64,000 bases of DNA, from positions 15,756-79,755 of the IMG/VR virus record IMGVR_UViG_3300035661_000043, one strand, 5' to 3'. Under the pieces are notes generated by a model that saw only the letters and a list, made by a program, of their open reading frames with translations, was not told the origin of the DNA and searched no databases. This stretch comes from a virus. Shown one piece after another: positions 3 to 56,618 of this stretch. Both the position numbers and the translations under genes were made by a program. Within the stretch, counting starts at the first letter, position 1, and every line of letters starts with the position of its first letter.

Positions 3-2147
3 AATTTTTTCGGGTTCTAGATCAAACGATCTGAAGAGGAGAAACAGCTTCCTAAATCAGTTGTTGCTCCAAATCTAGCAGATGGTTCTATTGTTATTAA
101 TCAGAACTTGGGAACTGGTATTCTCGGAGACTCTTATACTCTTGCATTTGACCCAGACGGTCAGATCACAAATGAGATCGATCTCGTTCGTAGATATAGA
201 GAATTGTGCAGATATCCAGAAGTAGCAGAAGCTATTGAAGATATCGTTAACGAAGCAGTGATTATCGAAGGTGAAGATAAACCTGTTGAAATCAATCTTG
301 AGTATCTTAAGATCTCAGATTCAATCAAGAAAAAGATCACAGAAGAATTTGCCAAGATTCTTTCACTGATGAACTTCAATGAAGAAGGGTATGATCTATT
401 TGAAAGATGGTATGTGGATGGGAAGATCTTTTTCCATATATTACTGGATGAAAATCATTCAAATGGTATCAAAGAGCTAAGATTAATTGACCCACGTAAG
501 ATCAAGAAGATCAAGAATGTGATCAAAGAGAAATTAGCAAGTGGTGTAGAGATTGTCAGGGAAGTACAAGAATATTACATATACAATGACAAGGGTATTG
601 CAGGCGGCACTAGTCAGGGTGTAAGATTAAGTGTTGATTCTGTTGTGTACTGCCATTCAGGTCTGATTGATTCACAAACTGGATTAGTTCAATCATATTT
701 GCATAAAGCAATCAAACCTGCTAACCAATTAAAAATGTTGGAAGAAGCGGTTATTATCTACAGATATACTCGTGCACCAGAGCGTAGGGTATTCTATATT
801 GATGTTGGAAATTTACCAAAAGGTAAAGCTGAGCAATACGTCAGTGATATGATGAATAAGTTCAAGAACAAGTTATCATATGATGCTGTTACTGGGGAAT
901 TGGCAGATTCTAAGAGACACTTGTGTTTGGATATGAGCACACAAGTACCATTGCTTGATGGCAGAACACTGTCTATTTCCGAGATTGCTGCAGAGATGGA
1001 TCAATCAGATAAACCTCTATGGGCATATTCATGTGATCCAGTGACTGGCAAATTTGTGCCGGGTAAAATTACCTGGGCCGGTGTATCTAGACCAAATGCA
1101 CAAGTCATGCGTATTACTCTTGATAATGGAAAAACCATTACTTGCACCCCAGATCACAAATTTCCAGTTTGGGACAAGGGATTCGTAAAAGCTGAAGATC
1201 TATATATTGGCGAATCAATGATCCCGCATTATACTCGTTGGAAGGAAATTGCTAAGGGTTCTTCCAAGAATTACGAACAAATTTTCGAGAATGATACTGG
1301 AGAATGGAAATTCACACATCAAGCAGTATCCGATTGGAAAGATTGTATTACATCGCGCCGTTCATCTACATCATGTGTTTCTTCTGATAACAGTGCAGAT
1401 AGACAAATTGATTCTCTAATGTTCCGTAACCATAAAATTGCAAAAATTGAGTGGTTAGAAGAAACAATGGACACTGGATGTCTGACTATTGACGGAGATG
1501 AAGAATTCCACAATTATCATACATTCGCTCTATCTGCCGGAATTTACACCCAGAACTAGATGATGGAAGATTTCTGGATGCCTAGGCGCGGAGATAAATC
1601 AACAGAAATCACGACACTTCCAGGGGGTCAGGGTCTCGGTCAGTTGGATGATTTGGATTATTTCAAGGATAAACTATATCGTTCTTTAAATGTACCTAAA
1701 TCTAGATTCGTTCCAGATAGTGGTTTCTCTATTGGTAGATCAGATACTATTTCTAGGGATGAAGTAAAATTTGCTAAATTTGTTGGCAAATTGCGCAACA
1801 AATTCGGAAATATCTTTTTAGATATATTGCGCGTTCAATTGATTTCTAAGGGTATTTTCTCTAGTAAAGATTGGGAACAATTTAAAGAGAAGATTAAAGT
1901 CATTTACGCTAAAGATAACTTCTTTGCCGAATTAAAAGAAAATGAAGTTCTTACTACTAGACTTTAGACTGCATTGCAATTGGATCCATTTGTCGGCAAA
2001 TATGTAAGCAAAGAATACATCCAAAGAAAAGTACTAAGATTCACAGATGATGAAATAAAAGAAATAAATACACAAATGGAAGCCGAGATCAAATCTGGTG
2101 ATATTACTGACCCAGTAGCAATGATGCAAGAACCACCTCAGGCATAA
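3..2147 (+). CDS. 20: Portal protein gp20 (5' end outside window) containing an intein; in-frame TAG read as Ser at 18, 1557, 1965
   Basis: gp20 motifs YLHKAIKPANQLKMLE, RAPERRVFYIDVGNLP, EDFWMPRR, LDPFVGKY lie in one frame across three TAGs; ends TAA 2145-2147. Confidence 0.95.
924..1556 (+). mobile_element. Mini-intein (211 aa) in gp20 with a degenerate endonuclease remnant
   Basis: Starts CLDMST (block A), contains TPDHKF (block B), ends HTFALSAGIYTQN; it interrupts KRHL|SMMEDFW; the +1 codon is TAG. Confidence 0.92.
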
Positions 2148-2163
2148 TCTTTAAGGAATAAAC

Positions 2164-2403
2164 ATGACAACAGCGCATGATTTAGTTAACGCAATTCAGT
2201 CAGGCAAAAGTGCAACGATTCAGGCTACTTTTGATTCACTAATGACAGAGAAAATTCAGGGTGGTATCGAGGCATATCGTCAAGCAGTCATCGATAACAC
2301 TTTCAACCCAGAATTGATGGAATCTGCCGAAGAATCTGCCGAAGAATCTGCCGAAGAAGATGCAGATGATTCTAGCATTAATGGACTAAGCAAGAGCACA
2401 TGA
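2164..2403 (+). CDS. Prohead core protein, gp67-like
   Basis: Small acidic protein directly after gp20, RBS AAGGA, ESAEE repeats. Confidence 0.65.
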   Translation: MTTAHDLVNAIQSGKSATIQATFDSLMTEKIQGGIEAYRQAVIDNTFNPELMESAEESAEESAEEDADDSSINGLSKST

Positions 2404-2476
2404 TAGAGTTGGCAACAAAAGCCGTCAAAAGAATTCCTAATATCGGTAAAGCAGTCGACAAACTAACTAAGTAATT

Positions 2477-2899
2477 ATGGCTAAAACAATACTCAAAAAT
2501 ACAGAAACTTTAGCAATCGTAAAAGTTTCTGGCAACAATATCTCAGAGACAATCACTCTTGCTACAGATCTTTTATAGTCATCTACAGTTGTTTCTGGCA
2601 CACCATCAGTTGGTATCAACCATATCCAATGGTCTTTGCAGGGTGACAATGGGGCTACTAAAATTGCTATTACTAGAGGAGCTACAGATGTACTTTCTCT
2701 ATATGATAACGGTTAGGCATTTGATTTTGCTGGCAATGGTGGTTTCTGTGAGACCACAGGGTCTACATCTGATCTAGTAGTCACAATCACTGGCAAAGCA
2801 TATGCTTATATAACTCTCAGAAAACTCTCTGGCTATAAGTCTAAGATTGAGACAGCAGAGTTTGGTTCATATGACGACACAACTGTGGTAGGAAGCTAA
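2477..2899 (+). CDS. Hypothetical head-module protein (140 aa, 2 in-frame TAG)
   Basis: ATG..TAA frame fills the gap between gp67 and gp21 only if TAG is a sense codon. Confidence 0.75.
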
Positions 2900-2901
2900 T
2901 C

Positions 2902-3543
2902 ATGTTGCTTTTAAGAGAATAGGTTGATTTTACTGATGTTCAGTTACTAACAGAGGCAGATGCTTCTGGCAAGAAATCTCTCTTCATTGAGGGTATTTTT
3001 GCTCAAGCCGAAAAGAAGAACCGCAATGGTAGGATTTACCCAAAATCAGTCATGGAAAAGTCTATAACTGATTATATTGATAATCAGGTTAAGAAGAAAC
3101 GTGCTCTCGGAGAAATTAGTCACCCCTCAGATCGACCACAGGTAAAACCAGAACTAGCATCACATCTGATCACAGAACTTCGGTTTGACGGAAATGATGT
3201 TTATGGTAAAGCTAAGGTGCTAGAAACACCACAGGGTCAAGTATTAGCAGGTTTGCTAAATGGTGGTGTTCAGATGGGTGTGTCTACACGTGGTCTCGGC
3301 ACAGTAGTTGAAAGAGCTGGATCAACATTTGTCAACAATGATTATGTTATCATGGCAATTGATGCTGTTGCAGATCCATCTGGAATCGATTGCTTTGTTG
3401 ATGCCGTAAATGAATCTCGTGAATGGTTGGTTCTTGACAATGGTCAGGTAATCGAAAGGATGAGACAAGAAATTAAAAAGACTCAACTCACTGAAGAACG
3501 TAAGTATCAGATGATGTCAGAGTTTTTTGCTTCTTTAAAATAA
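2902..3543 (+). CDS. 21: Prohead protease gp21 (1 in-frame TAG near start)
   Basis: FIEGIFAQAE-KNRNGRIYP, ALGEISHP, GVSTRGLG, DAVADPS. Confidence 0.95.
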
Positions 3544-6040: not shown

Positions 6041-7486
6041 TTAGTTCAAGATATAGACAAAATTTCCACAGTCATATATTTGAAAATATCCAGCATTTTC
6101 CATAATCTGTCTTTCAGTTAAATCATCTTTATAATAAGTAGGTACTAATTTCTTTAGTTTGGATTTTTGTGTTTGATATCTTGAATACCAACCATTAAAA
6201 CTATGCCAGGAATAACCGGGTTCTGTTTTTCTTATATATTTCCCAAATCGGGAATATGTTTTGCCAGTGGATATTTTTCTGTCGCAATAAGTAAGAATAG
6301 GTTCTGTTGTTATATTATTTCTTACATATTTCATCAATTTTGAAAAACCACCAATGACTGTGACATTAAGTTTAGACGCCATTCTTATTAATTCAAAATT
6401 ACATTCTTTTGTGAATCTACTTTTTCCTATGGATATACACATGACGATCTCATTATCTGATAGAAGAGCAATATAGTTATTAGCAGGAGAAAATCCCTGA
6501 AGATGTGTTTTATCAAAAAATTCTCTTGCTTCTTTCGCTGCAATCTCTTTTATAGTTGTTTTTCTTGCATAGATTTTTTCTGAATTACCTAATTTGTTCA
6601 AAAGAATAGACTTCACAATTTCTGGTTTATGTTTCAATTCCTATTCAAATATATGCATAAGATTAACACCAATTTGAGAAGCCATTTCTGTTTTTTCTAG
6701 ATGAGATTTAATTTCATCTGATTTTTTAGTAGAATGCCAATAGATTCCATCAAATTCAATCCCAAGTTTTAGTTCTGGGATGTAAATGTCAATTTCTCTC
6801 GGAGTTATTACTGATCTACTATTTCTTACAGTATCAAAACCGAAAGATCTGATCCATGCATCTAATTCATCCTCACCAGCAGAACCTGTTTTGGCATAAG
6901 TAAAAAGATTATGATATGCATAATACTTTTGTACAAAAACTACATGAGCACCATTAAAGAATTTCATACTTAGTTCTGATAAAGATTTACACTCATCTCT
7001 AATAGAGCAGAGATAATCTTTGTCAAAATACATATCCAAATTTAAACCAAGTTCTGAAAATTTACTCTTTAAAGATTCGATCTTTCTAATTCCCCTTTTC
7101 TTTTTCTTTGATTCTTTTACACCAGGAATTCCATTATTCCATGAAACACCGTATTTTTCTTGGTAAGTTTTTCTAGCTTTTTCTGCACGTTGTTTAGAAT
7201 TATTTCTTTGAATTTCAGATATTTTGGCAACAGTAGAAGGTTCATTTGCTGCACATCTAGGAGAACATACTTTCTGACCGGGTTTCACATAGTGAATACC
7301 ACCACAGTAACATTTCATTGGCGGCATGTCGCTTATCAAGAAATCGATACGATCCCGCATGTTCCATTTTTCATAGCCAACGGCTGAAGTTTTCTCCATA
7401 ATATATGTAAATAGCCCATGAGACTTGAGATAATTCTCTTGCATTTTTCTGGGACTTTTTCTTACTTCTACAAGTTTTTCTTTCAT
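6041..7486 (-). CDS. Hef-like/Vsr-fold putative homing endonuclease (1 TAG at 6641)
   Basis: EIDIYIPELKLGIEFDGIYWHS, HIFE*E, ELIRMASK, YDCG; the two track ORFs are in frame across one TAG. Confidence 0.8.
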
Positions 7487-7586
7487 TCTAGCCTTAAATT
7501 GGTTATATCAATTTGATGATCTTGTTAATTAAACATGTCTACTAACCTTTTGTAACCTAATTGATGAATTAAGTGTTCAATCTTTT

Positions 7587-7615
7587 CACAAAACCGCCCG
7601 AAGGCGGTTTTTGTG
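7587..7615. terminator. Bidirectional intrinsic terminator, paralog of 6015-6038
   Basis: CACAAAACCGCC-CGAA-GGCGGTTTTTGTG. Confidence 0.8.
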
Positions 7616-7623
7616 TTTCTTCT

Positions 7624-9090
7624 TCATGTTAACACATACTTTAAATTGCCGCAATCATAGTATATCTTGAACTTATTATTAAACATATTCTGTTCTTCTG
7701 TTAAGTTTTGATCAAAAGTCTTTAACAGTGTCGATAATTTGGATTTTTGTGTTTTGTATCTGGAATATGTTCTTGATCCATTTGTCCAAACATACCCAGG
7801 ATCTGTCAATTTCAAGAATGTAAACTATGATTTTGCATATACATTCCCATTTGAAATTCTTCTGTCAGCATATGTAATAATAGAACCAGTATAGTTCTTT
7901 CTGAAATAATTTAGAATCTTCTGAAATCCACCTACAACAGTAGTATTCAATTTAGATGCAAATCTGATGATTTCCCACTCATAGTTCTTTTCAAATCTTG
8001 GTTTACCAAAAGTACAAACTGCTACTAATTCATTCTCATAATATAGACCGAGATTGACTTTAGACACTGCATATCCACTTAGATGTGTTGTTTCCAAGAA
8101 TTGCTTTGTATTTTTAGAATCAACTATTCTAAGATCACATTTTCTAGCATATATCTTTTCTGTGATGCCTAATTTAGAACGAATAATAGATTTGACTAAT
8201 TCCGGAGATTCTTTCCATTCTTCTTCTGTGATTCTTATAACAAGATTACCCGTTTTTTCTGCATCAATCACTTTCTTTTGATGTATTTTCTTTTCGGCAG
8301 ATGAGAGTTTTCTGTCTGATCCGTGAAAATATAGACCATCATATTCTATACCAAAATTCTTTTCTGGTACAAATATGTCTATCTCTCTTTTATCTGTGTC
8401 AAAAATTTTGACATTCTGTTGAACGTCAAATCCAATCGATTTGACGAATTCTGCAATTTGTTTTTGACCAGAAGAAATAGAATAGCCTACTTTCACTGGT
8501 ATTTCATGTAACGCAATATATTTTGCTATAGTTCCTTTGTCAATATCAAACTCCGATGATATATCCATATACGTCTTGTCTAATGTGATATACTGATTAT
8601 ATAGCCAATCTCTGTCTGAAACCATGGTTTCAATTCTTTTCTACAACTTAGATTTAGTCCATACGTGCTTTATATCTTCTCTTTGTGAGTTATATTCTAC
8701 CCCATATTTCTTAATCATTGTTTCTTTTCTGGATTGTTTTCTTTTTTCAAGAATTTCTGGATCTGAATCACGAGTTTTTACAGCAAGACGGATTCTTTCA
8801 ACATCTTTAGAAGAACATTTTTTTGAACAATAATCTGAAATTCCTTTGTCTCCAAATACGAACATTCTTCTATTTGTTTTACACACCGCACAAACCCCAG
8901 GTTCACACAATTGCATTTTGGCTAGTGTGAACAATTCTCTGACAGAATAGCCATCTCGTTCATATATATCTAAAATAGCTAGAATATGTGAAGTGTATTC
9001 AAATTTTGCACGAAGAAATTTGTAATTGCACCTCTTGCTAGGTATTTTTCCATTTACTTCTAGTGCTTCTATTATCTCATCAAACCACAT
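7624..9090 (-). CDS. Second Hef-like putative homing endonuclease (TAG at 8641 and 7825)
   Basis: YCSKKC, KKYGVEY, EIDIFVPEKNFGIEYDGLYFH, YDCGN; three track ORFs join in frame; AGGAG upstream of ATG 9090. Confidence 0.8.
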
Positions 9091-9398
9091 TTGGAAACTC
9101 CTATGTTCTATATTATATATTAATTTGATGATCCAGTGAAGTAAACGGAATGAATAATAGAAACTATTCATTACTTCAATGTGACTAATTTCTCACACAT
9201 AGACAAAGTTATGTTTGTCTGTGTCAGATCACTGCTAGACAAGATCGAAGCTGTAGGACAGTTAATGCAGGAGCCTACTGGTGTCTCCTTCGGTTTATGT
9301 TTCAATTCCTATTCGGACCCAAACCCTTAATTCACGGAGTGCGCGTATTTTTCTCACTTGGTACATAAATAGTACAACACACTTTCGGGGATATTCAA

Positions 9399-10301
9399 AT
9401 GACCGGTAATGATTTAGCTGATATGTTATCCAAGTCTGGATACAAAATAAAGTCGAAAACAAGTACATCTGTTGTTGTATTAGTATCTGGAAATCGCCTT
9501 AATGCTATGAAAGAGTTAGCTGTAAAATTACACAATCTAGGTGCTGTAATGGATCCGAATGCAAAGGGTTAGTAGATCGGTGCCATTATGATTGATAAAA
9601 TTAAGGTATTAGTAAAATCAGATGGGAAGACTGGTGGGCTAGATGTAGAATAGGCGGCTATTGAATCTTTAACTAATGCTATAAATGGGGCATTATGTCA
9701 GGCTGGAGAGCCAATTACTATTAAAATGCCACATCGAACAGTATCTGGGATCGTTGGTGTAGAAAAAACTGCTGGCACACCTAAGTAGGATTTTCACTTA
9801 GTAGATGAAAATGATAGACCTGTAGTTTTCATCTCTCATAAAAAAGGTTCTAAACCAAATGATTTTCAACAATGGGGTGGCATGACAGAAAAAGAAATTG
9901 CTGCTCATAAAGAAGTAATCCAATTCGCTTTGGAATGTAGAGCTAGCCCGCATGTTGGATAGAAGATACCTTAGGGTATGTCTGTGTATAAGAAAATAAA
10001 AAGTAATGATCTAAAGATGATGTAGGTATTTGGTGTCAATTCTCTAAGATAGAATGGTAATGATATCAATTCCGTAGATGTACTAATCCAAGGAGACCCG
10101 GGTGTCAAATTTATATCTGGAGTTACATTTGAATTAACGGGTACAGGTCACATACATTATTACGGCGATATCCCTAGTGGCGGATTTGAACCAGTTTTAG
10201 CATGCATATATAAAGGTGACAGAGATCAATTCGGTATTAAAGGTGCAAGATTTTCTATCTATCCATTCGCAGGAAGAAATTTTAAGGTCCAATTGAAATG
10301 A
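9399..10301 (+). CDS. Hypothetical protein, possible PD-(D/E)XK-like fold (300 aa, 8 in-frame TAG; absent from the ORF track)
   Basis: Open frame with only TAG interruptions: G**IG, GTPK*DF, ISHKKG, FQQWGG; CATAAATA late-promoter variant at 9364. Confidence 0.8.
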
Positions 10302-10801
10302 TATCATTTAGACAATATCTTATAGAGGCAATGGATACTCGTGTTGGAAATTATGTTTAGGTCGGAACAACATTCCCAGACATAATAGATCAGATGGATG
10401 TTTCAACTGGAAATAGATCAAAAGATCCTCATATCACATTAGTCTACTCTAAAGAATCTTCTGTTGATAAAAACAAACTGTTAAAGTCAATCCAGCAATC
10501 ATTTAAAGATTATGGAGTAGCAGAAATAATTGGAGCAGCTGCTTTTAGAGAAGATGATAAAGCATGTATAGTACTCAAACTTAAATCTCCACAATTATCT
10601 AGAATTAATACCGCTCTGTGTTCATTTGAAGATATAAAACATTCATATCCAGAGTTCAATCCACACCTAACTCTATTCTATGATGTAAATCAAGAAGAAG
10701 CAGATTACTGGGTAGATTGGTTAAACCAGAGAGTTAAAGGGAAAATGTTAGAATTCAAAGGATTTGAATAGACAACAATTATAGAAGATTGGAACAAATA
10801 A
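10298..10801 (+). CDS. 2H phosphoesterase, T4 57B/Acb1-like (2 TAG)
   Basis: Two HxT motifs (HITLVYS, PHLTLFY), N-terminal GNYV and C-terminal DW as in 57B. Confidence 0.75.
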
Positions 10802-10889
10802 TGACTACTTCATGAATGCAAACATCACCCGCATAATGCTCACCAAAACCCCAATAATTATAGAAGATTGGAACAAATAATGACTACTT
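10777..10889 (+). repeat. 34-bp direct repeat duplicating the 57B-like/gp3 junction
   Basis: AATTATAGAAGATTGGAACAAATAATGACTACTT at 10777 and 10856. Confidence 0.9.
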
Positions 10890-11431
10890 TAACTTGCCCA
10901 AGCCCAGGTAATGTGAATCCTCTTAGACTCCAGAGTTATCAGTTCACGATTCAGAAATTACCAGAACTGACGTATTTTGTCTCTACTACTGAAGTACCAT
11001 AGATGACGCTCGGTGTTTCTACACAGTCATCTTCTGTACATGATATTAAGATACCAGGTGAAACGATGGATTATTCGGATCTGACTATCGATTTTCAGAT
11101 TGATGAGGAGATGAAGAACTGGAATGCAATTTATTTCTGGATGGTGGGTCTTGGTTACCCAGAAGGTCATGAGTTGTATCGGCGTTATATGAATGCCAAG
11201 GTAAATCAAAATTCTACAAATGAACTGATGAAGGGCTATTCAGATGCATCGCTGATTGTTTTGGATTCTTAGAATAACCCGAAACAGGTTTTTACTTTTG
11301 TGGACTTGTTCCCCGTGAGTCTGTCGGGTATGAGATTTGATTCTAGTAACACAGACAACCCCATAGCAATGGCGTAGGCGACTTTTGCTTATTCTTATTA
11401 CTACATAAATAAGGATGTGCAAACCACTTGA
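10880..11431 (+). CDS. 3: Tail completion/sheath stabilizer gp3 (3 TAG)
   Basis: FTIQKLP, IPGE, FQIDEEMKNW, SDASL, FVDLFPVSLSG; synteny with uvsY. Confidence 0.85.
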
Positions 11432-11441
11432 GACATAAATT

Positions 11442-11876
11442 ATGACATTAGATGATTTGCGGGCTGCTTGGCAGTCTGACTGTGAGATTGACCAAAATGA
11501 TTTAGGGACTGCTTCTGCGAAGAGTCCCAATCTCCATGCCAAATACTTGGATGAATTAATTCAGTACAAACTTCGCATGACTAAACTCCAAAATGAGATC
11601 ATAGAATACAGAGTCAAAAGGACTAAGTATTTTCGTGGTGAAATGACGCGAGAAGAACTAAAAGATGCTGGCTGGGATCAATGGCAATATAAGACATTGA
11701 AGTCCGAAGTAGATGCACTAATTGATGCAGATCCGGATTATCAGAAACTCTCCACTAGAGAACAATACATCAAAACATGTGTGTATTTCCTTGAAAGTGT
11801 TTTACAAGAAATTAGATCTAGATCTTTTACAATTAAGAATATTGTAACTTGGCAACAATGGAGAAGTGGGAATTAA
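11442..11876 (+). CDS. uvsY: Recombination mediator UvsY
   Basis: W..DCEID, PNLHAKYL, RSFTIKN. Confidence 0.9.
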   Translation: MTLDDLRAAWQSDCEIDQNDLGTASAKSPNLHAKYLDELIQYKLRMTKLQNEIIEYRVKRTKYFRGEMTREELKDAGWDQWQYKTLKSEVDALIDADPDYQKLSTREQYIKTCVYFLESVLQEIRSRSFTIKNIVTWQQWRSGN

Positions 11877-11935
11877 TATAGTATATCTATTATTTCAAAG
11901 TCCATAAGAAATACAGATCCGATGAAAGATGTATA

Positions 11936-13483
11936 ATGAATGTAGATGTTGAATTTATCCCAAAGGATGAATAGAATATTCTTATTAGATGTTCTGATTT
12001 TGGTATATACCAAGAAATGTCTGAGTATTTCTCGTTCTTCGTTGAAGGCTACAAGTTTATGCCATCATATCGTAATGGTACATTCGATGGGAAAATTCGG
12101 ATCTTCGATGCTCGATATAAGAAGTTACCAAAAGGACTCTTAAAGATTGCAATAAAATTCTGTAAGGACAGAGATTATACATTCAGCATTGATCCAGAAT
12201 TAAATCCAAAGACTAACTTTAATGAAAAAGAAATTATAGATTGGATAGATTCAATTGATGTTACTACAAAAGGGAAACCAATTGCAGTAAGAGATTACCA
12301 GACACAAGCTATTCTTCAATCTTTGAGATATTATCGTAATCTGCTAATCAGTCCTACTAGTTCCGGAAAGTCATTAATTCTGTATTACAAACTGAGATAT
12401 CACATTGATATACTACATCAGAATGTAGTTGTAATTGTTCCAACAACTCAGTTAGTTGAGCAACTATATTCTGATTTCAAGGATTATAGTGAAACAAATG
12501 GGTGGGATGTTGACGAATATACTCAAATGCTTTACTCCGGGAAAGAGAAGTTATTTACTAAGCAATTAATGATTTCTACTTGGCAATCACTTGCTGCTAT
12601 GTAGAAATTTCATCAAGATAAATTCAAGCATATCTGTGACACAACTGATGTTCTGTGTATGGATGAAGCACATACATATAAATCAGATGTAACTTTAGCA
12701 ACTGCTAATAAGTTTTATAGAGCAAAATGGAGAACTGGTACAACTGGCACACTAGATGACTCGAAAATCAATAAGTTACAGTTAATTGGTCTAATGTCAG
12801 AACCATATCAGGTAATTACCACTCGTGAATTGATGGATCAAAAATCAGTTGTAAATCTTGATATCAAAGTATGCAAAATCCATTACCCCGATGTGCTGAA
12901 ACAGCAATTGATTGGTATGGATTATAAAGCAGAGATTAATTATCTAGTAACATACGAGCCTAGGAATCGATTCATTGCAGATCTTGCCAAGAATACTAAA
13001 GGTGTTACTTTAGTTCTGTATACATATATTGAGAAACACGGTGCAGTATTAGACAAATTCATCCGTGAAATCTGTCCAGGAAGAACAGTGAGATTTATTC
13101 ACGGTGGTGTAGATATTGAAAATAGAGAAGAAGTAAGAAAAGTGGCAGAGACTGATGAAAATTGTATTATCATTGCTTCTTCTGCAATTTTCAGTACAGG
13201 TACTAATATCCCATCAATTGAGAATGTGATTTTTGCAATGCCCACGAAATCAACAATACGTGTGCGGCAATCGATTGGTAGAGGTTTAAGACTAAGAGAA
13301 GGAAAGAATAAATGCACATTGTTTGATGTGGCAGATGATCTCAGTTTCAAGTCGTACACCAACACAACGTTACGTCACATGTTTCATAGAATTGAAATTT
13401 ATGACAAGGAGCAATTTGACTACACAGTCCATAAGATTGATGTCAGTAAATTCATGTCTGACTCATCAATGTACACAGACTAA
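11936..13483 (+). CDS. uvsW: Helicase UvsW (TAG at 11972, 12602)
   Basis: FSFFVEGYKFMP, PTSSGKS, TWQS, DEAH, QSIGRGLR. Confidence 0.95.
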
Positions 13484-13676
13484 AGATAGTTACATTACAA
13501 CCGAGCGGTGGGGGCAACTAAGATTATCCTTTTAATATGATTGTATATTGCCTAGAACTCTTGTAAACCCCTCTTAGCAAAATATTTTTCACACATGCTA
13601 AGAGGGGTTTCTTCATTTTCTTCTGTGTTATAATAGTAAGTGAATGACACAACACATCCTAATTCAGGAGCATACT

Positions 13677-14273
13677 ATGGCGAAATACTACGACGCAACC
13701 CCCATCAAAATCAAACCACCCGTGGATCCAAAGAATCCAGAGCACTACGTCAACAACCAAGACTTCAAAACTGCTCTGTTAGACTATGCGGAGCAAAGAG
13801 ATGCCGCTCTTGCTGCAGGCGAAGAAAAACCCCAAGTGTAGAATTACATCGCTTCATGTTTCCTGAAGATTGCTAAGGGTCTAGGCTCGAAGCACAACTT
13901 CCGGAATTACAGTTATTTGGATGATATGATTAGTGATGCAGTTTTTACATGTCTTAAGAATATCGACTGTTTTGATGCATCTAGAGGAACTAGTGCATTT
14001 GCATATTTCACACAATGTGTCTGGTTTTCCTTTCTTGGCTCTATCAAAGATGAAAAGAAGAAAGAACAGACTAAACGTGATTTGTTCTTCAGAGGGGATT
14101 TTGATACCTTTGATATGGGATCAGAAGATGAAGAATTTCAAATGTAGTATACTGAATACATGAAATCTCTCGGGACAGATTCAACTCCTTATGAATCAAA
14201 AGAACAAAATAAAAGAAAGAAATTTGAAGCAAAGAAATCAGGTCTTGACACACTGTTCGGGGATGAAGAATGA
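13677..14273 (+). CDS. 55: Late sigma factor gp55 (TAG at 13839, 14145)
   Basis: HYVNN, V*NYIASCFLKIA, NFRNYSY, DMISDA, AFAYFTQ. Confidence 0.92.
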
Positions 14274-15319
14274 AAGTGTGCATACTCGGTGATCTTCATC
14301 TAGGTGCACGAAATGGGAGTAATCATTTCTAGGATTACTTTAATAGATTCTTTTCTGAAGTTCTTTACCCATACTGCAAGAAAAATAAGATCAAACATAT
14401 TCTCCAACTTGGAGATTGTATGGATAACAGAACCAATTTAGCATACAAAGCATTTTCAAAATGCCGAGATGTTTGGTTTAATGATATGGGAAATCATGGA
14501 ATATCAATGCATGTTCTTCTTGGCAATCATGATATTGCATATCGGCATACTTTGGAGATTAATAGCCCAGAGTTATTGCTTGGTGAATACAAACATATCA
14601 CTGTTGTGAATAAGCCTACTCAAATCGAATTGGGAGGCACAAAAATTGATATTGTACCTTGGATCTGTGATGAAAATGAAGAACAAATTAAGGAATTTGT
14701 AAAGAGAAAAGATAGAGGATCTATTCTTCTTGGGCATCTTGAATTAGCTGGATTTGCAATGTACAAGGGTATTGAATCTCATGGTGGGATGTCTGGGTCT
14801 ATATTTGATGGGTATAATTTGGTTTTCTCTGGTCATTACCACACGAGAAGTGAAAAGGGTAATATCGTTTACACTGGTATCCCATATGAAATTACTTGGG
14901 CTGACTATGCAGACCCAAAAGGATTTTTTGTCTATGATACTGACAAGAACACCTATGAGTTTGTGAGAAATCCGCTGACTATGTTCGAGAAGATTCACTA
15001 TAATAATGGTAGTAAAGTTGATATATCAAAACTTGCTGGTAAAATTGTGAAGATCATTGTTGGTGAGAAGAAAGATGCAGTTCTTTATGAGAGATGGCTT
15101 GATTCTATTAGATTGGTGTCACCTTACGAATTAACTACTATTGAGAATGATATTGTTTCTTTGGATGGAGAATTAGATGATTCTATTCAGATCGAAGATA
15201 CCCCTACCTTAGTAAAGTCATATATCGACAAGATAGACACATCAGTTTCCAAAGAAGACTTGAATAAGTATATGCAAGCACTTTATTTTGAAGCACTGAC
15301 TACAAACGACACACTGTAA
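14270..15319 (+). CDS. 47: Recombination nuclease gp47, Mre11-like (TAG at 14330)
   Basis: GDLHLG, LGD, GNHD, GHLEL, SGHYH. Confidence 0.95.
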
Positions 15320-15324
15320 ACTAT

Positions 15325-17031
15325 ATGATTATCTTCGAAAGTATAAGAATCAAGAACTTCCTCAGTTACGGCAATGCATGGACTGAATTAAATCTCAGAC
15401 AGGGAAAAGTACTAGTTGCAGGTGCCAATGGGGCAGGAAAATCTACTATGGTAACTGATGCTCTGTAGTATGCACTATTCGGTAAGCCATTTCGTAAGAT
15501 CAATATCCCACAATTGATCAACTCTATCAACCAGAAGGATTGCCAGGTAGAACTAGATTTCTAGATTGGCAAGGATTCTTACCAAATTAAGAGAGGGATG
15601 AAACCGGGGAAGTTCGAAGTATACAAAAATTCAGAATTGATAAAACAGGAAGCAGCAACAAAGGATTATCAATAGTATCTTGAGCAGCAAGTGCTGAAGA
15701 TAAATCATAAGACGTTTGTACAGATTCTTGTTCTTGGTTCTGCTGTTTTTACTCCTTTTATGCAATTAGCAGCCGGTCATAGAAGAAATGTGATTGAAGA
15801 TCTTCTAGATATCAATGTTTTCAGCACTATGCTTAGATTGCTTAAGGAAAAGATTCAAGTCAATAAAGAAGAAACTCTAATCATCAATGGTAAACTAGAA
15901 TCAGCTAAGAAGGAATAGATTGCACAGAAAAGACTCATTGAAACATTGAGTTCTAAGAGTGATGATCAATTGGTAATTCTGTATTCTGAACTCACATAGT
16001 TACAGAACGATATAGTATCGGCAAAATAGAAGAGAAATGATGTACACAAATTACTTGAATCTATCCAGATTCCTGACTTTATGTCAGAAGAATTAGAAGA
16101 TATAAGAGTTGAATTCAATACACTGAAAAAGTAGATTCAATCAGATATCAAGAAGATAGATTCAGTCTCCGCTATTCATTCATGCCCAACATGTTTACAG
16201 TCTGTAACTGATGATCACAAAGTAAGAATCAAGACTGAACTAAAATATAAGTATGATCAACAGAAACCGAAGCTAGATCAGTATTCTAAAAAAGTTGAAG
16301 AACTGACTACACAGAAAGAATTGTTTGATACAGCAAAGATCGAACAGCAGAAAATGTTGAAAGAACTTGCTGCGATAGACCAGAAAATAATTTCCCTTGA
16401 AGAACAAGAATCTTCCACACGAGTGAAGATCGAGACACAGAAACAAAGTTCTTCTGCAGACTTGGAAAAAGAAAAAGATCGACTCAGAGATTTAGCACAA
16501 TCTGCTCTTATGTTGATTGAACGCAAGAACGAATTGATCACAGAGAAATAGATTCAAGAAGTCTCTCTAGGTCTTCTGAAGGACACAGGTATTAAGGCTA
16601 GTATCATCAAAGAATACCTGCCGATTCTCAATAAGATGATCAACAAGTATCTATCTGAGTTCGACTTTTTCATTAATTTTGTATTGGATGAAAATTTCAA
16701 TGAACAGCTGTTGAGCAGAGGAAGAGATTCGGCTTAGTACTTCTCTCTATCAGAGGGTGAAAAGAAGCGAGTAGATGTTGCAATTCTTCTCGCATTCAGG
16801 CATATTGCTTCTCTAAAGAATTCTGCAAAGATCAATTTGCTTGTTCTTGATGAACTTGATTCTGGGTTGGATCACGACTCTCGTTTGAAGTTGCTAGAAT
16901 TGATCCAGACTATGGATTCCGATGTCTGGATGGTCTCCCACTCTATACAGAACACTGAACTTGAACAGCAGTTCGATAAGGTGACTTTTGTAATGAAGAA
17001 GGGAGATTTTTCAGAAATGATCATCAAGTGA
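15325..17031 (+). CDS. 46: Recombination ATPase gp46, Rad50-like (9 in-frame TAG)
   Basis: KNFLSYGN, GANGAGKST, LFGKPFR, CPTC hook, SEGEK, LDE; one frame to TGA 17029. Confidence 0.95.
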
Positions 17032-17127
17032 ATCTACATGTGCTAAAATTTTGAATTTCTCCATGAGAAATATGTTATAATGATTTTACTGGCAATAATG
17101 CCATTTTTACTATAAGGTGACTACTTT

Positions 17128-17790
17128 ATGAACTTATCAAAACAAACACTGTCCATTCTTAAGAATTTTGCGGGTATCAACGGTAACATTGCACTGAAGA
17201 AGGGATCCGTTCTTACCACTATCTCCCCACAGCGCAATGTTGTAGCATCTGTGACTGTGACGGAGGACTTTCCAGAAGACTTCTATATCTATGATTTAAG
17301 TCAATTCCTGGGTGTTCTATCACTGTTTTCTGATCCAGATATCGACTTCAGCTCAACCGTTGCAACGATCAAGGAAGGAAAAAATAGTATCAAGTACTAT
17401 GCAGCAGACAAATCTGTTCTACTGCTCCCACCAGACAAGGCTATCAAGTTCCCCGGAGCTGATGTCGAGTTTGAATTTACTGCAGAACAGTTAACCGCTA
17501 TTCAGAAGACTTCCAGTGTACTTTCTGCTCCAGATCTGAGTATCGTTGGTGATGGAAAAACCTTGACAATGAAAGTCTTAGATCTTAAGAATAATAGTAC
17601 AAATAACTATGAAGTTGAGATCGGTGACACCACAGAAGAGTTTGTTGCTAACATCACAATTAGTAACCTGAAAATGATTAATCAGTCCTATAAAGTTGAG
17701 CTGTCATCAAAGAAAATTTCTAAATGGACTGCTCTGGATGGTGATATGACGGTGTATGTAGCTCTGGATTCTACTTCCACATTCTCGTGA
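17128..17790 (+). CDS. 45: Sliding clamp gp45
   Basis: LSKQTLSILKNFAGIN, IYDLSQFL. Confidence 0.95.
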   Translation: MNLSKQTLSILKNFAGINGNIALKKGSVLTTISPQRNVVASVTVTEDFPEDFYIYDLSQFLGVLSLFSDPDIDFSSTVATIKEGKNSIKYYAADKSVLLLPPDKAIKFPGADVEFEFTAEQLTAIQKTSSVLSAPDLSIVGDGKTLTMKVLDLKNNSTNNYEVEIGDTTEEFVANITISNLKMINQSYKVELSSKKISKWTALDGDMTVYVALDSTSTFS

Positions 17791-17912
17791 TATAATGGGG
17801 CTTTGTCCCCCTTCCAAGAGTTAGATTTTACTAAATTGGTAACATCAAAAGATATGAGTGGAATAGCACTAGACAGTAAATTGAACCATCTGAATAATCT
17901 GAAAGATATATT

Positions 17913-18854
17913 ATGAGCAGTATTGAAAATTTTGTGTGGAGTGAAAAATATCGACCTTAGACTGTGGCAGAATGCATACTCCCACAGTCAATCAAAAATG
18001 TGATTGTAAGCATGATCAAGAATGAAGATGTGACACATATTCTTATGTCTGGATCTGCTGGTTGTGGGAAAACAACATTAGCTAGAGCCATAGTAAATGA
18101 CTATGGTGGTGAATATCTGTTCATTAATGCATCTTTGGAGAATGGTATCGACACTATCCGAACTAAGGTTATGCAGTATTCCAGTACTGTTTCTTTGGAA
18201 GGAAAACAGAAATTTCTCATCATGGATGAATTTGATGGAATTTCTCGACAGAGTCAAGAGGCTCTTCGTGGTATCATTGAAGAGTTTAAGAATGTAAGAT
18301 TCTTCTTTACTTGCAATTTTAAAAATCGTATTATCGATGCTATCATCTCTCGTACAGTTGAGATCAATTTTACTATCCCAAGTGATGAAAAATCAAAACT
18401 TCAGTCTCAGTTCTTCAAACGTATAGTTGAGATTCTGAAAAAAGAAAATGTAGAGTTTGACCCAAAAGCAGTTGCAGAACTCATCCAAAAAAGTTATCCA
18501 GACAATCGTAAGATTCTGAATGAACTACAACGATATGCGTCAGGTGGTAAAATTGATGCAGGTGTTTTGATAGATCAAAGTAAATCTCACTTCAAAGATC
18601 TACTCAAAACCCTGAAAGAAAAGAACTTTACGGAGATGCGCAAGTGGGTCGCAAAAAATACCGATATTGAACCACAATCACTATTTCGGGAGATTTATGA
18701 TTCTGCTAATGAGCAATTGCTACCTTCTTGTATACCTCAAGTAGTAATTCTTGCTGCAGATTATGGGTTCAAGTCTACACATTCAGTTGATCAAGAAATT
18801 CTTATTGCTGCATTTCTCACTGAATTTATGGCAGGTGCTCAATGGAAGCAGTAA
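17913..18854 (+). CDS. 44: Clamp loader large subunit gp44 (TAG at 17958)
   Basis: EKYRP*TVAECILP, GSAGCGKTT, DEFD, SR motif. Confidence 0.95.
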
Positions 18855-19174
18855 ACACTCTAACGGATTTGACACTGTTTGTTTTTTTACTACTGGCTGT
18901 AGTAATAGGATGGACTACAGGTTATTACAAAGGGCTCATCACCGGCTATAATTATGCTAAATCGGAAGAGATAGATAAGTACCCAGTTGCCAATGTGTAT
19001 TTTTATGACACAGACAAAGAGGATGCAGACAAAGAGGATGAATATTCATTTGTGAATATGGTGACTGGTGAGTTTATCACCTCCGGCTCATTTAATGAGT
19101 GTATTGAGAAATTAAAATCTAAAGATACATCTAAGCTTGTTGTTTTTTCTAAAGGAGAAAAAGATGAGCAGTAA
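18842..19174 (+). CDS. Hypothetical membrane-anchored protein
   Basis: Hydrophobic N-terminus; coupled to neighbouring genes. Confidence 0.6.
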   Translation: MEAVNTLTDLTLFVFLLLAVVIGWTTGYYKGLITGYNYAKSEEIDKYPVANVYFYDTDKEDADKEDEYSFVNMVTGEFITSGSFNECIEKLKSKDTSKLVVFSKGEKDEQ

Positions 19175-19556: not shown

Positions 19557-19599
19557 AAGATTTACACTTATCCTATTGCGCATATCCGCTTTGGGATTT

Positions 19600-19850
19600 G
19601 AAAATCTGATTCATATTTGGCGGCTTCTGATTTCCACATTAAATTCTGTGTACTAAATAATACGGAAAGATTCTAATCCAGTATGCTTGATTAATTCTTT
19701 TACATACTTAGATGATGTTTTATATCATCTTGTGTTAACAATTTTGAATGATGACAGCCTGATTTTGTTTCAGATCCGCGATATAAAAGACCAGAAGATG
19801 TGTGTTCTATGATATAAAAGTATGGTTTCGATTTTTTACGCTGGACATAA
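19600..19850 (-). pseudogene. Frameshifted GIY-YIG homing endonuclease remnant
   Basis: Minus-strand fragments KPYFYIIEHTSSGLLYRGS..GCH and SSKYVKELIK..GLESF in different frames. Confidence 0.6.
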
Positions 19851-37454: not shown

Positions 37455-37820
37455 TGTGCGATATCTCTATCGCACATCAGAATGACTGTATGGATCTTCG
37501 GATCTGTGAAGTTGAAAGAAATGTGTTCAGGAAGCGAGTTCGAGTCTCGCCAGCTCCACCAGAAGTATATCATCTGATGCATTCTGTGTGCTGTATATAT
37601 TGCAAGTATTCAGTATACTTCTGATGGGGCTGTATTGGTTTCGACTGGGCAATGAGTATGGAGATGGACAGTTTGGCAACGCAGAAGCCATTATGATTGG
37701 GTCTTCCCGGTTGAAGAAGCAAACAAAAGTAAAAGCAAACGCTGATACATTCCTGATGGCGGCTTGATCGCCCAGTGAGGATTCCTTGGGTGTTCCTTAT
37801 TACCAAAACACCCATCCTAA
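37455..37820 (+). ncRNA. ssrA: Circularly permuted two-piece tmRNA; tag ANADTFLMAA (outer ends approximate)
   Basis: T arm plus CAGCTCCACCA ends at 37561, before GGGGCTGTATTGGTTTCGAC at 37626; G3-U70 pair; tag frame 37735-37767. Confidence 0.9.
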
Positions 37821-38877: not shown

Positions 38878-39141
38878 GCAAATTTAGCTCAATGGTTAGA
38901 GCAGCGGACTCATGAAAAATTGTGCACCTAGGTAGGGATGCTTAGTGTGAATGTTGTCAAATTCGAAGAAACCTAAGTCAGAAATGATATGGTAACCTCG
39001 AGCCAAGCCTGAGAAATTAGGTGCTGTGTAGAGACTAGACGGCAACCATCTAGAACAGATGAAGGTATAGTCCAGGGAGTGGCGAAAGTCACACAAACCA
39101 GAATCCGTTGGTTACAGGTTCGAGTCCTGTAATTTGCACCA
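38878..39141 (+). tRNA. tRNA(CAT), probably Ile2, interrupted by a group I intron
   Basis: Exon 1 38878-38913 ends CTCAT; exon 2 39102-39141 AATCCG..ACCA; the spliced product is a canonical cloverleaf. Confidence 0.92.
38914..39101 (+). mobile_element. Group I intron (188 nt), Azoarcus tRNA-Ile type
   Basis: GTCAAATTCG..AAACCTAAG, GAGCCAAGC, GTAGAGACTAGACGGC, ATAGTCCAGGGAGTGGCGAAAGTCAC, terminal G. Confidence 0.93.
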
Positions 39142-41704: not shown

Positions 41705-41764
41705 AGTATGTTATAATTACTCAACAACAAAAGAGAAACACTCTTTCTAACTTAATAGTTTAAT

Positions 41765-41854
41765 GGAAGTTTGGCAGAGTGGTTTATTGCCGCGGACTCT
41801 AAATCCGCTGAATCAGAGATGGTTCCACGAGTTCGAATCTCGTAACTTCCTCCA
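41765..41854 (+). tRNA. Amber-decoding tRNA with CUA anticodon and Ser-type body
   Basis: GGAAGTT/AACTTCC, GCGGA-CT-CTA-AA-TCCGC (anticodon 41799-41801), 6-bp variable stem with GAGA loop, perfect T arm, TCCA. Confidence 0.95.
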
Positions 41855-47400: not shown

Positions 47401-47964
47401 ATGGAAATTAAAGTAAAAAAAATTGATGTCAATCATCAAAACATGACAAAATATCTTGGTGATAATAATGTTATCAGAAAGACTAATCTTAGAAGCAGTC
47501 TGCGCTTCGGCAAATTGGTTATGTGCGCAGACGCAGACGCAGATGGTTAGCTTCGGCTAACTAATCTATAAACTAATTTAAGAAAGAATATTGGCTCACA
47601 TATTTGTGGCTTAATTATGGCAGGGCTGAAGAAATTTTGGCCCGAATTATTTTCTCTAGGTGCAGTATATCGATTCCAGACACCGATTATGAAAGTTATG
47701 ATCGGCAAGGATGAAAAATATTTCTATTCACTTGATGAATTCTCTGTTTGGGAAAAGACTAATACTAAATCTTTCAAGACTCGGTATCTGAAAGGTCTTG
47801 GCTCTTCTACCGCGGAAGACTTCCGAGGTTATTTTGCTAACATGGATAACAATCTAGTGCAGATTACGTTACAATCTACTGATGATCTAGACATTGTTGA
47901 TCTGGTATTTGGTAAGGAAACAGGAGCAGCTGATGCTCGTAAAGTCTGGTTGGATTTGGAGTAA
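47401..47964 (+). CDS. 60: Topoisomerase small subunit gp60 with a 48-nt bypassed coding gap (47548-47595)
   Basis: MEIKVKKID..MTKY..NNV..RSS..CADADADG|gap containing TAG and TAA|SHICGL..RYLKGLGS. Confidence 0.9.
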
Positions 47965-53384: not shown

Positions 53385-53386
53385 TT

Positions 53387-54418: not shown

Positions 54419-54573
54419 TTATTGAACAACAACATGACATGATACAAGCAGAGGCAGGTAAAGGTTCTGCACCAAGGAAGACCTAGGATCAAAAGAAGTA
54501 TGCAGACAATTGGGATCTGATCTTTGGTAAGAAGAAAGAACCAACCCCTACTCAACAAAATAAGATCCAATAA
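54415..54573 (+). CDS. Small conserved phage protein (1 TAG)
   Basis: GKGSAPRKT*DQKKYADNWDLIFGKK. Confidence 0.6.
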
Positions 54574-55141
54574 AGAAAAGCCCTATGATTTTTAGTCATA
54601 GGGCTTTTTAGTTTCTGCTTCAAGAATGCTTCAAGAATTGTAGAATTTTACAAGAATACATTTCTAGTACTCTAGAATTATCTTCTAGTATTTTCTTTTG
54701 GAATCATGTACTTTTGGTTTCATCAGGCAAAGGAGCCCTATCCGGGGCTCCAATGCCTGATAAAGTATCATGTACTTTCGGATCACCAGGGGTTTAATCA
54801 TCAACCAGACTTAACTGGAAAGGCGGCTGACCGGTACCTTTTATGACTAGGAGCGACTTTCGTCTCAGCGGGGCTAAATGATGCTTATAAACCAAAAACA
54901 TCATCTAGGTGTGTCATTTCAACACATCATTCTTTGCTGGCACTTTCGTGCCTGTTAGTTTGTTATCCGTCCCGACTAGCTCCTTCCAGGCTTTCCGGTT
55001 GATAGGTCTTTCAAGGCAGACATCACCTCTAAGTAATCCGACGATCTCGCGACGTCTTGTGCATCCGCAATAAGGATCCATCATCATTGCGTCACATAGT
55101 ATATATTAACATACTTTCCCCAGAAGTGATTATTCTTAGTG

Positions 55142-55202
55142 CTTTTACACAACTTTTACACAACTTTTACACAACTTTTACACAACTTTTACACAACTTT
55201 TA
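55142..55202 (+). repeat. 11-bp tandem repeat CTTTTACACAA x5.5
   Basis: Direct reading of the sequence. Confidence 0.95.
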
Positions 55203-55607
55203 TGCGGTTTTTTGTTAAAATATATTCATGATCAAATATAACGGTAAATAATATGACGATAGCACTTACTAACTATTCTCGTGTAGTGGCTGCTAGTTAG
55301 TATCTCTCTATCCACAAACCTCACAAAAGTGTCTAGGCATAAGATCATACTACAGTTGAAGTGTGCTGGATTAGAATGAATATGAATTTCAAAAGATGGG
55401 ATTGAATAATGTCTTACATGTCAAAACAACGACAGAAACGAAAACTGCCACACCGTAATTTCTTAGTACCTTTGGTTATCAAGAAGACTGGTTCTGGAAA
55501 ACACAAAGACAAGAAACGTGAATCGAAGGGGAAACATCATGAGTGAATGTTACTGATCACAGGTGAACACCGGATCATATGAAGTTGCTCGCAGAGCCGG
55601 GATCTCG

Positions 55608-56618
55608 TTAAGAGATAACCCATCCCTTAGAAGCATCTACATATGTTAATGTGAGATTTGCATTCATTACATTTACAGTCATGTCTTCTGCAAAGCCCAT
55701 GATGTTTGATCCATTACGCAATAGTGTTGGTGTTACTGTATTACTACTATTGATGATCCGCACCCAGTCACCCATTACTGGGGTTGGAGGAAGTGTTATG
55801 TTTGCAGATGCAGTTAGGATATATGTTCTCTACTGGGTGACCTAAGTGTCTCCTGAAATCACATACACCTATTCTCTGTAATCAAGATTAGCAGAAGGAA
55901 TCTTCCCCACACCAATTCGACCTGATGTCTGAGTGTCACCCTATGCTGTGAATCTAATTCGCTCAATATTGTTTGTATTGATGATGAGATCTTTGTTATC
56001 TACTAGATTGATATAGGCATTACCAGATGCAACCTGCTGGACGATCAACCCTAATGCATTAGATTCATCCTTGACCCTAATACCTGGATTTGTACCTGCT
56101 ACATCTAATTTCCACGCTGGTGATACTACACCCAGTCCGATATTCCCGCTAACATCTTTAACAAACTGGTTGCTACCGATGGTGATCTCAGTTGTGTTGC
56201 CGGTGAAACCGTTGATCGTGGGAAGATTAAGAACTGGAGATGTCAATGTTTTATTTGTCAACGTCTGTACACTGTTTAGAGTCACACTATTAGAAGAAAT
56301 AGATGAAACCTACTGCTGCAGATTTGATATGTCCGAAGTTTGAGTGGATGTTAGAGTCTGTAGTGAACTTATGTTACCAGTATTAGTAGAAACATTTCCC
56401 TGGACAGTCGTGACTGTTCCAGAAAGAGTTGTGACTGTTCCAGAAAGAGTTGATAGGTTAGAATTTGTAGTACTATTCCCACTCTCAACCAATGCAAGTT
56501 CATCTGACAGAGACTTAAAATTGCCGTCAATTTCTTCATTCGTCAGAGGTGAACCCTTGACTGAGGTGCTATTTGGCACAGAAGGGGAACCGGTGCGATA
56601 TTTGATATTGGCTGCCAT
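55608..56618 (-). CDS. Virion fibre/baseplate-type structural protein (336 aa, 5 TAG)
   Basis: KGSPLTNEEIDGNF, coiled coil, QTLTNKTLTSP, GNIGLG, ITLP..GDWV, YVD..GW; one frame through five TAGs. Confidence 0.85.

Follow-up and report, generated by a model that had tools for sequence, protein, structure and literature searches.

Several groups of phages have been described in which the amber codon (TAG in DNA, UAG in mRNA) is read as an amino acid. In crAss-like, Lak, Garnet and Topaz phages, which use NCBI translation table 15 (TAG = Gln), in-frame TAGs occur in virion and replication genes, a tRNA(CUA) is encoded by the phage, early or "code-change" genes are free of in-frame stops, and TAA and TGA serve as stops (10.1101/2021.08.26.457843; PMC9523058). 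A large survey of recoded phages, published in the same two reports, states that TAG to Gln and TGA to Trp were the sole changes seen where the code of the phage differs from that of its host; the recent literature on phage recoding takes the amber change to be to Gln alone, and tool papers treat it as table 15. Phages reading UAG as Ser and phages reading it as Gln were both reported by Ivanova et al. (2014), according to a review (PMC4695839); the amber-to-Ser phages are described there as encoding a Ser-tRNA(CUA), with a host of presumably standard code, and as also carrying release factor 2 (RF2). In this study, a stretch of 64,000 nucleotides (hereafter the window), bases 15,756 to 79,755 of the 79,755-bp IMG/VR virus record IMGVR_UViG_3300035661_000043, was analyzed with respect to its in-frame TAG codons. 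TAG very probably encodes serine in this phage, while UAA and UGA stay stops. The assignment is supported by four independent lines of evidence: the codon partners of TAG in close relatives, the residues in deep alignment columns, the residue required next to an intein, and a tRNA(CUA) apparently derived from a tRNA-Ser.

The features listed above for the code-15 phages are shared by the present phage, which differs from them in the amino acid, Ser and not Gln, and in having a class-II tRNA. With the amber-to-Ser phages it would share the decoding of UAG by a phage-encoded Ser-tRNA(CUA) and, presumably, a host of standard code; it differs in being a T4-like myovirus from mats and sediments, and no RF2 was found in the approximately 45% of the genome that the record covers. 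The sequence-only reading of this stretch had called the code rare or undescribed. The first word holds and the second does not, in view of the phages of Ivanova et al. (2014) as summarized in the review: a serine amber code is rare and largely forgotten, but not new, and what is new here is the T4-like lineage together with the details of the intein and of a bypass-like site. Phrase searches of the literature for TAG or UAG to serine returned no phage paper. To our knowledge, none of NCBI tables 1-33 has TAG = Ser.

The record is approximately 45% complete according to CheckV, and the G+C content of the window is 38.7%. Profile and PDB matches identified the portal, gp21-23 (prohead protease, scaffold and major head protein), gp41, gp43-47 and gp55, together with uvsW, uvsX, rIIA, rIIB and the topoisomerase II genes gp39/60/52; judged by this gene content, the phage is a T4-like myovirus, as had been proposed from the letters. 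Its closest cultured relatives are marine cyanomyoviruses, with about 37% identity in the scaffold protein. Under table 11, conserved genes are broken into pieces, and they fuse to full length when TAG is read as sense. The window then contains 106 in-frame TAGs in 44 of 92 open reading frames (ORFs), or 72 in 27 of 60 when only ORFs of at least 100 amino acids (aa) are counted. As in recoded phages generally, TAG lies inside gp46, gp41, the portal gene, gp44, gp47, gp55 and uvsW, and homology continues past it; profile hidden Markov model matches span the TAGs over residues 1-566 of 568 in gp46, which has nine of them, and over residues 6-440 in gp41. TAG does not act as a gene terminator, with the caveat of one TAG at position 47548 that is discussed below. 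A greedy gene set for the whole 79.8-kb record, called with TAG as a sense codon, has 109 ORFs, and every one of them terminates at TAA (61) or TGA (48), in line with the sequence-only reading; this pattern follows from the ORF-calling procedure itself. Six of the TAGs are no more than 10 codons away from the end of an ORF; where alignments to relatives are available for TAGs near 3' ends, they continue through. A measure of stop-to-stop coverage was discarded, as it failed to separate TAG from TGA or TAA.

The genes concerned are on the plus strand unless stated otherwise. They begin with the portal gene (gp20) at 18-2147, whose 5' end lies beyond the window and which has TAGs at 18, 1557 and 1965 (Pfam Portal_T4, 547 bits in two stretches; PDB T4 gp20, E = 4e-103), and the gp21-like head maturation protease at 2902-3543, with a TAG at 2920 (phrog_207, E = 7e-66, residues 3-210). 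A conserved 300-aa protein of unassigned function (phrog_13937), encoded at 9399-10301, has eight TAGs (9570, 9573, 9651, 9786, 9960, 9972, 10023 and 10050) and is the richest small gene; it is followed by an ORF at 10298-10801 with two TAGs and by a tail-tube-like gene at 10868-11431 with three (phrog_45). The uvsW helicase gene lies at 11849-13483 (PDB 2oca, E = 1e-65), with TAGs at 11879, 11972 and 12602. Next come the late sigma factor gene gp55 at 13644-14273, with two TAGs (phrog_234, E = 1e-44, residues 30-202), the SbcD-like gp47 at 14270-15319 with one (phrog_100), the SbcC/Rad50-like gp46 at 15325-17031 with nine (phrog_77), and the clamp-loader subunit gene gp44 at 17913-18854 with one at 17958 (PDB 3u5z/8unf). 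The replicative helicase gene gp41 at 27045-28502 contains six TAGs (phrog_19), and another helicase gene at 28499-30112 contains two (phrog_2488). A fibre-like ORF on the minus strand, 55608-56633, contains five; its basis is ORF fusion only, no family match was found for it, and its TAGs are the least secure.

The sequence-only reading had already noticed most of these interruptions. Its counts were recovered for the portal gene, gp21, the tail-tube-like gene (which it had called gp3), gp55, gp47, gp46, gp44, gp41, the second helicase and the fibre-like ORF, and it missed the ORFs at 9399-10301 and 10298-10801 and two HNH-like genes. For uvsW it gave two TAGs, which is correct for the part aligning to T4 UvsW, while the longest ORF has three. 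A TAG attributed to regA had to be withdrawn: T4 RegA aligns from residue 22 (ATG at 20070) of the ORF at 20007-20456, and the TAG at 20058 is upstream of that start, leaving regA without a TAG. The codon at 20058 is also TAG in one relative, L099.

In-frame stop codons could in principle be assembly errors, or mark pseudogenes of a defective phage, and the raw presence of stops is all that speaks for such an explanation. The region 9399-29398 was recovered at about 100% identity in contigs of four runs from four studies, two of microbial-mat and two of sediment metagenomes. Few variants were seen among these contigs and none on any TAG codon; the TAGs are therefore not sequencing errors. The sequence is thus identical in four independent assemblies, 15 of the TAG positions are conserved in relatives, and the genes are interrupted by TAG only, never by TAA or TGA, with homology at full strength past each TAG. 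An artefact is accordingly extremely unlikely.

The first line of evidence for serine comes from three close relatives (L002, L099 and L100), which are IMG/VR contigs of one metagenome series with 81-90% DNA identity to the window between 4.8 and 30.4 kb, and to which 6312 codons were aligned. The 35 window TAGs covered face TAG 15 times, Ser codons 12 times, Gln codons four times and other codons four times, and conversely, where the relatives have TAG and the window does not, the window codon is Ser (5), CAG (3) or GAG (1), nine cases in all. The 29 non-TAG partners, pooled, are thus Ser in 17 cases, Gln in seven and other residues in five. The Ser partner codons are TCT (10), TCA (3), TCG (2), TCC (1) and AGT (1); TCT, which is two mutations away from TAG, is the commonest, as a synonymous relationship predicts. 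The six TAG positions of gp41 are TAG, TCG, TCT, TCC, CAG and TAG in L002 (87% aa identity); L100 has TCT at the TAG of gp47, AGT at 12602 in uvsW, and CAA, TAG and TCA in the tail-tube-like gene; L099 has TCT in gp44; and L002 has GCT and GAT in the second helicase gene. TAG is retained between relatives in 15 of 35 cases, similar to TCG (9/27), and since it is retained about as often it behaves as an ordinary codon.

The 29 non-TAG partners were also scored. With a substitution matrix derived empirically from these alignments, log10 likelihoods were -30.7 for Ser, -50.5 for Ala and -52.6 for Gln; conditioned on changed codons, they were -28.2, -41.8 and -43.0. No other residue comes within 13 log10 units of serine in this test. 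One competitor is glutamine, the table-15 meaning found in crAss-like and Lak phages and the translation used in protein databases: the database copy of the protein of ORF 9399-10301 has Q at all eight TAGs, and CAG or CAA is the partner of TAG seven times. In the test above, however, Gln falls 15-22 log10 units below Ser, and the deep alignments, the intein and the tRNA described below point in the same direction, which makes Gln a very improbable meaning of TAG in this phage.

The second line is provided by more distant homologues. Of 116 homologues of the protein of ORF 9399-10301, 114-115 have Ser at each of the TAG columns 58, 59 and 130; at column 209, S (67) and A (46) are mixed. TAG column 471 of gp46 is Ser in 97 of 120 homologues, column 48 being S/C/T, and TAG column 130 of gp41 is S in 52 and T in 23 (50 and 23 before two genomes were added). 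Log-odds were summed in the manner of Codetta over 22 TAG columns of gp46, gp41 and ORF 9399-10301, with homologues below 62% identity for gp46 and ORF 9399-10301 and tblastn relatives for gp41. Serine alone was positive (+6.55), the values for Thr, Asn, Ala, Gln and Cys being -5.4, -5.7, -8.6, -9.8 and -17.3, which agrees with the serine assignment of the sequence-only reading and places Gln well below Ser.

That reading had also named particular sites as Ser columns. With TAG written at the amber position, TAG-YFSLSEGE (S in 97/120), DAL-TAG-Y (S/C/T) and DF-TAG-IG (S commonest) in gp46 were borne out, and so were KYRP-TAG-T of gp44, which aligns to the Ser of T4 KYRPSTIDEC, and KDE-TAG-N of uvsW, where the TAG at 11972 aligns to Ser in T4 UvsW. 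Three other sites turned out differently in alignable relatives, FGF-TAG-I of gp20 being Lys, V-TAG-NYI of gp55 Pro and K-TAG-IAEELR of gp41 G/A/S.

The third line is a single codon in the portal gene. An intein of 211 residues (residues 273-483, positions 924-1559) was recognized by Pfam Intein_splicing (PF14890; 39.5 bits, cut-off 35.8), with the NrdJ-1 intein as PDB match. It has Cys1 (Cys273, CLDMSTQ), a TPDH block and the end ...GIYTQN. Its penultimate residue is Gln in place of His. The +1 extein codon is TAG (1557-1559), and portals without the intein have Ser at this site, namely T4 gp20 (...HNM|SMTEDYW, Ser329) and the relatives G001 and G002 (...KFM|SMLEDFW). Protein splicing requires Ser, Thr or Cys at +1. 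Portal maturation in this phage thus depends on insertion of Ser at UAG, whereas Gln, which is unable to act as the +1 nucleophile, would leave an unspliced and presumably dead portal.

The fourth line is a tRNA gene with anticodon CUA at 41765-41854 on the plus strand (90 nt), which was found by ARAGORN and by the Rfam tRNA model (54 bits). It is a class-II tRNA with a 7/5 cloverleaf, a 7-bp acceptor stem, a 5-bp anticodon stem, a 6-bp variable arm and an encoded CCA; its elements include G1-C72, G2-C71, A3-U70, C11-G24, the anticodon loop CUCUAAA and U73, and the cloverleaf is the minimum-energy fold. All four annotated near matches among 50,697 phage records are tRNA-Ser. Against class-II tRNAs of T4-like relatives, identity is 72-61% for tRNA-Ser(UGA/GCU), with 72-66% for the closest ones, in which U73 and the variable arm are shared, 58-52% for Tyr and 52-36% for Leu. 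Seryl-tRNA synthetase (SerRS) recognizes the long variable arm and the acceptor stem and does not read the anticodon. A tRNA-Ser whose anticodon has become CUA would therefore be expected to keep its serine identity. The gene at 41765-41854 is the sole tRNA(CUA) found in the record; a Gln-type suppressor tRNA(CUA) was not found there, nor was a tRNA-Ser(GCT) gene by ARAGORN or Rfam. A close copy of the tRNA(CUA) was not found in IMG/VR with a strict pattern or in JGI metagenomes, and for the neighbouring oxygenase gene only distant relatives of at most 35% identity were found. An extended -10-like motif, TGtTATAAT, lies at 41709-41717 on the same strand, about 47 nt upstream of the tRNA, as a consensus match only; no promoter was called on this strand by a scan that depends on a -35 element.

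The label "tRNA-Pyl" given to this gene by ARAGORN was rejected. It is based on the anticodon only, and a tRNA-Pyl should have a short variable loop, a small D-loop and a 6-bp anticodon stem, while the present tRNA is a 90-nt class-II tRNA with a 5-bp anticodon stem and a 6-bp variable arm. ARAGORN also called a "Stop(tta)" tRNA at 34281-34356 on the plus strand, for which the anticodon register is ambiguous. This label, too, comes from the anticodon only and was rejected, and the gene is probably not an ochre suppressor: the UUA register needs two stem mismatches, and TAA is the commonest stop. In the Infernal alignment the loop is CCUUUAA and the anticodon UUU, which makes the gene probably a tRNA-Lys(UUU) with C33. 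A phage tRNA-Gln(UUG) in the contig L159 has the same D-arm over 20 nt.

A tRNA of serine type could carry another small residue, for instance Thr, Cys or Ala, or a serine modified while on the tRNA, as phosphoserine and selenocysteine would be. S/T/C or S/A mixtures do occur in some TAG columns, the discriminator U73 departs from the canonical one for Ser, and Ser-like tRNAs with other identity elements have been reported to insert Ala (PMC5389517). The column log-odds for Thr, Ala and Cys are nevertheless all negative, and the tRNA(CUA) lacks G3-U70 and has a 7/5 acceptor/T arm, that of tRNA-Sec being 8/5. Genes resembling SepRS, PSTK or SelA were not noticed, with no search aimed at them. 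Any of these residues is hardly to be expected in place of serine.

In the mechanism proposed here for the decoding of TAG as serine, the tRNA(CUA) would have arisen from a phage tRNA-Ser by a change of its anticodon to CUA, would be charged with serine by the host SerRS, and would then deliver this residue to UAG codons, where it would have to outcompete release factor 1 (RF1) of the host. A role of the code in timing may also be considered, and the distribution of TAG along the genome bears on it. From the start of the record to 31 kb of the window, TAG makes up 7.9% of Ser sites, compared with 1.5% in plus-strand genes at 41-64 kb (p = 4e-7); its share is about 8% in most genes for structure, replication and recombination. 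This depleted block (41030-64000) includes a 2-oxoglutarate (2OG) oxygenase, topoisomerase II gp39/60/52, a phosphatase, a kinase-like gene, rIIA and rIIB, and its five TAGs are confined to two small unsupported ORFs. Genes without TAG also include gp22, gp23, gp45, uvsX and two of the three pieces of the DNA polymerase gene. TAG is thus avoided in early-type genes and in those of highest expression (gp22, gp23, gp45), whereas genes of replication and recombination such as gp41, gp46 and uvsW do contain it, a distribution that fits only loosely the published idea that recoding delays late genes. The T4 late-promoter word TATAAATA is not enriched in the sequence (two sites, four expected), and promoters gave no means of telling early genes from late ones. 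In the record's ORFs of 100 aa or more, including the 15.8 kb upstream of the window, 47% of in-frame TAGs have A as the next base, while for other Ser codons the figure is 33% (p = 0.003). An A after TAG favours suppression in E. coli.

The caveat mentioned above concerns the topoisomerase small-subunit gene in the depleted block (47401-47964), which has a site with a layout similar to that of the bypassing site of T4 gene 60. At 47545-47595 on the plus strand, a GGT codon ending ...DADADG is followed by TAG (47548) within a UUCG hairpin, by an in-frame TAA at 47569, and then by GGC TCA CAT ATT (SHI...). Removal of 48 nt restores DADADG-SHI, a TOPRIM motif; the take-off codon (GGT) and the landing codon (GGC) differ. 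The position of this site in the TAG-free block fits translation of the block while UAG still stalls ribosomes. One scheme that would accommodate these observations is that UAG has two meanings within one infection, a stop or stalling signal early and serine later, once tRNA-Ser(CUA) has accumulated. Replication and virion genes with multiple TAGs, and even the splicing of the portal intein, would then be gated by the tRNA, the code change would act as a developmental timer, and serine amber recoding would be a recurrent phenomenon that has been overlooked through mistranslation as Gln. This scheme is offered tentatively and may well prove wrong.

Several observations weigh against a simple serine code. 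Gln accounts for seven of the 29 non-TAG partners, which is above the ordinary Ser/Gln exchange; the excess is attributed to the fact that CAG and TAG are separated by a single transition, so that CAG feeds TAG sites, and it leaves room for some ambiguity or Gln insertion. In five whole T4-like genomes (35-55% identity) Ser is again the best residue, yet by only 2.7 log10 units over Gln, a tally that is weakly informative, since variable columns hold most of the TAGs and the five genomes are themselves closely similar. The discriminator of the tRNA(CUA) is U73, not the G73 expected of a SerRS substrate. E. coli SerRS prefers G73. The U73 is common to genuine tRNA-Ser(UGA)/(GCU) of the T4-like relatives L023, L053 and L088, in which the variable arm is nearly the same. 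The TAG at 47548, judged from its surroundings, is probably not read as Ser but looks like a stalling or stop codon. No release factor, anti-RF1 function or aminoacyl-tRNA synthetase was found in the roughly 45% of the genome at hand; the searches for release-factor (PF00472) and class-II synthetase domains in the 79.8-kb record are uninformative, the record being incomplete. A simple serine code would further require the completion of a gene with nine TAGs even if RF1 is active.

Part of these observations could be accounted for if UAG were suppressed and not fully reassigned, with mainly Ser inserted, partial termination by RF1, occasional decoding by near-cognate tRNAs (Gln), and a meaning that varies with time and context. 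The Gln-partner excess, the block of early-type genes free of TAG, the TAG directly after the take-off codon at the gene-60-like site, the six TAGs within 10 codons of ORF ends, and the absence from the record of a visible RF1-neutralizing gene would all be in line with this. Genes with six to nine TAGs, on the other hand, need near-complete read-through, a mixed product would be costly at invariant Ser columns and at the catalytic intein residue, and TAG is kept in close relatives like other Ser codons. Partial suppression is therefore regarded as unlikely, although less so than the other alternatives, and a serine code remains the preferred reading.

Serine-inserting amber suppressors are well known from the laboratory, namely T4 psu1+, which is a mutant T4 tRNA-Ser gene, and supD/serU of E. 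coli. The present phage has in common with them a tRNA-Ser with CUA anticodon that would insert Ser at UAG, and the T4 suppressor is likewise encoded by the phage. They are single selected mutations that rescue amber mutants, whereas here the gene is fixed and more than 100 in-frame TAGs would depend on the tRNA. The CUG = Ser yeasts (tables 12 and 26, with tRNA-Ser(CAG)) likewise captured a codon by an anticodon change in a tRNA-Ser body; in their case the change is from sense to sense in a cellular genome, in contrast to stop to sense in a virus.

A wider scan of IMG/VR contigs with a pattern combining a serine-type D-arm and a CUA anticodon loop matched 35 contigs. Twelve of them (L120, L125, L126, L128, L130, L135, L137, L144, L145 and L149-L151) hold a class-II tRNA(CUA) of 84-89 nt, which is about 51-64% identical to the present one and in most cases has a G discriminator. 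In the contig L155, a TAG in the terminase gene corresponds to Ser in 8 of 8 relatives, and in L166 a TAG in the portal gene (residue 528) corresponds to Ser in 14 of 14; over all sites of L166, TAG is partnered by S 38 times, by E and by T nine times each, and by Q eight times. From these comparisons, amber recoding of serine type seems to recur in unrelated phages.

The database translation of such genes can be followed in ORF 9399-10301. Besides the copy with Q at all eight TAGs (P0122), close database relatives have Q at otherwise invariant Ser columns, and JGI/IMG members of a related cluster (P0124) are fragments of 45 and 91 aa, as would be given by code-11 calls split at TAG. In the closest Logan/ENA relatives (P0001-P0012), a Q at a TAG column would accordingly stand for a TAG codon, to judge from P0122 and the 45-91-aa fragments. 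About 8% of Ser sites would be wrong or missing in every affected database protein, catalytic and invariant positions included. That a well-documented serine case comes from the most thoroughly studied family of phages is a reason to infer the amino acid genome by genome instead of assuming table 15, a reason strengthened by two unrelated IMG/VR lineages that give the same signal. T4 biology also gives experimental handles, including amber genetics, the laboratory suppressor psu1 and gene 60 bypassing, and tools for amber suppression might draw on the serine-type tRNA(CUA) as a candidate part from nature.

Other features of the window were observed in passing. The minus-strand region 6041-9171, immediately adjoining the 3' side of the oppositely oriented major head gene, contains two paralogous genes of 481 and 515 aa that match "homing endonuclease/HNH" PHROGs and have weak restriction endonuclease (REase) and Mom-like Pfam matches; in-frame TAGs occur in each. 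The gp43 DNA polymerase is split across three consecutive ORFs at 21328-25242, with TAA or TGA stops between them, the pieces covering profile positions 6-497, 497-626 and 581-852, and a separate exonuclease-like ORF lies upstream. An additional tRNA at 36867-36937 was detected by Rfam (45 bits) and not called by ARAGORN. A permuted, two-piece tmRNA is present at 37502-37767 (Rfam RF04321, 94.7 bits); its tag peptide, ANADTFLMAA according to ARAGORN, may hint at the host group. Finally, a group I intron (Rfam, 66 bits, 38902-39094) is located within the anticodon loop of a tRNA at 38878-39141, which ARAGORN reads as tRNA-Met(CAU).

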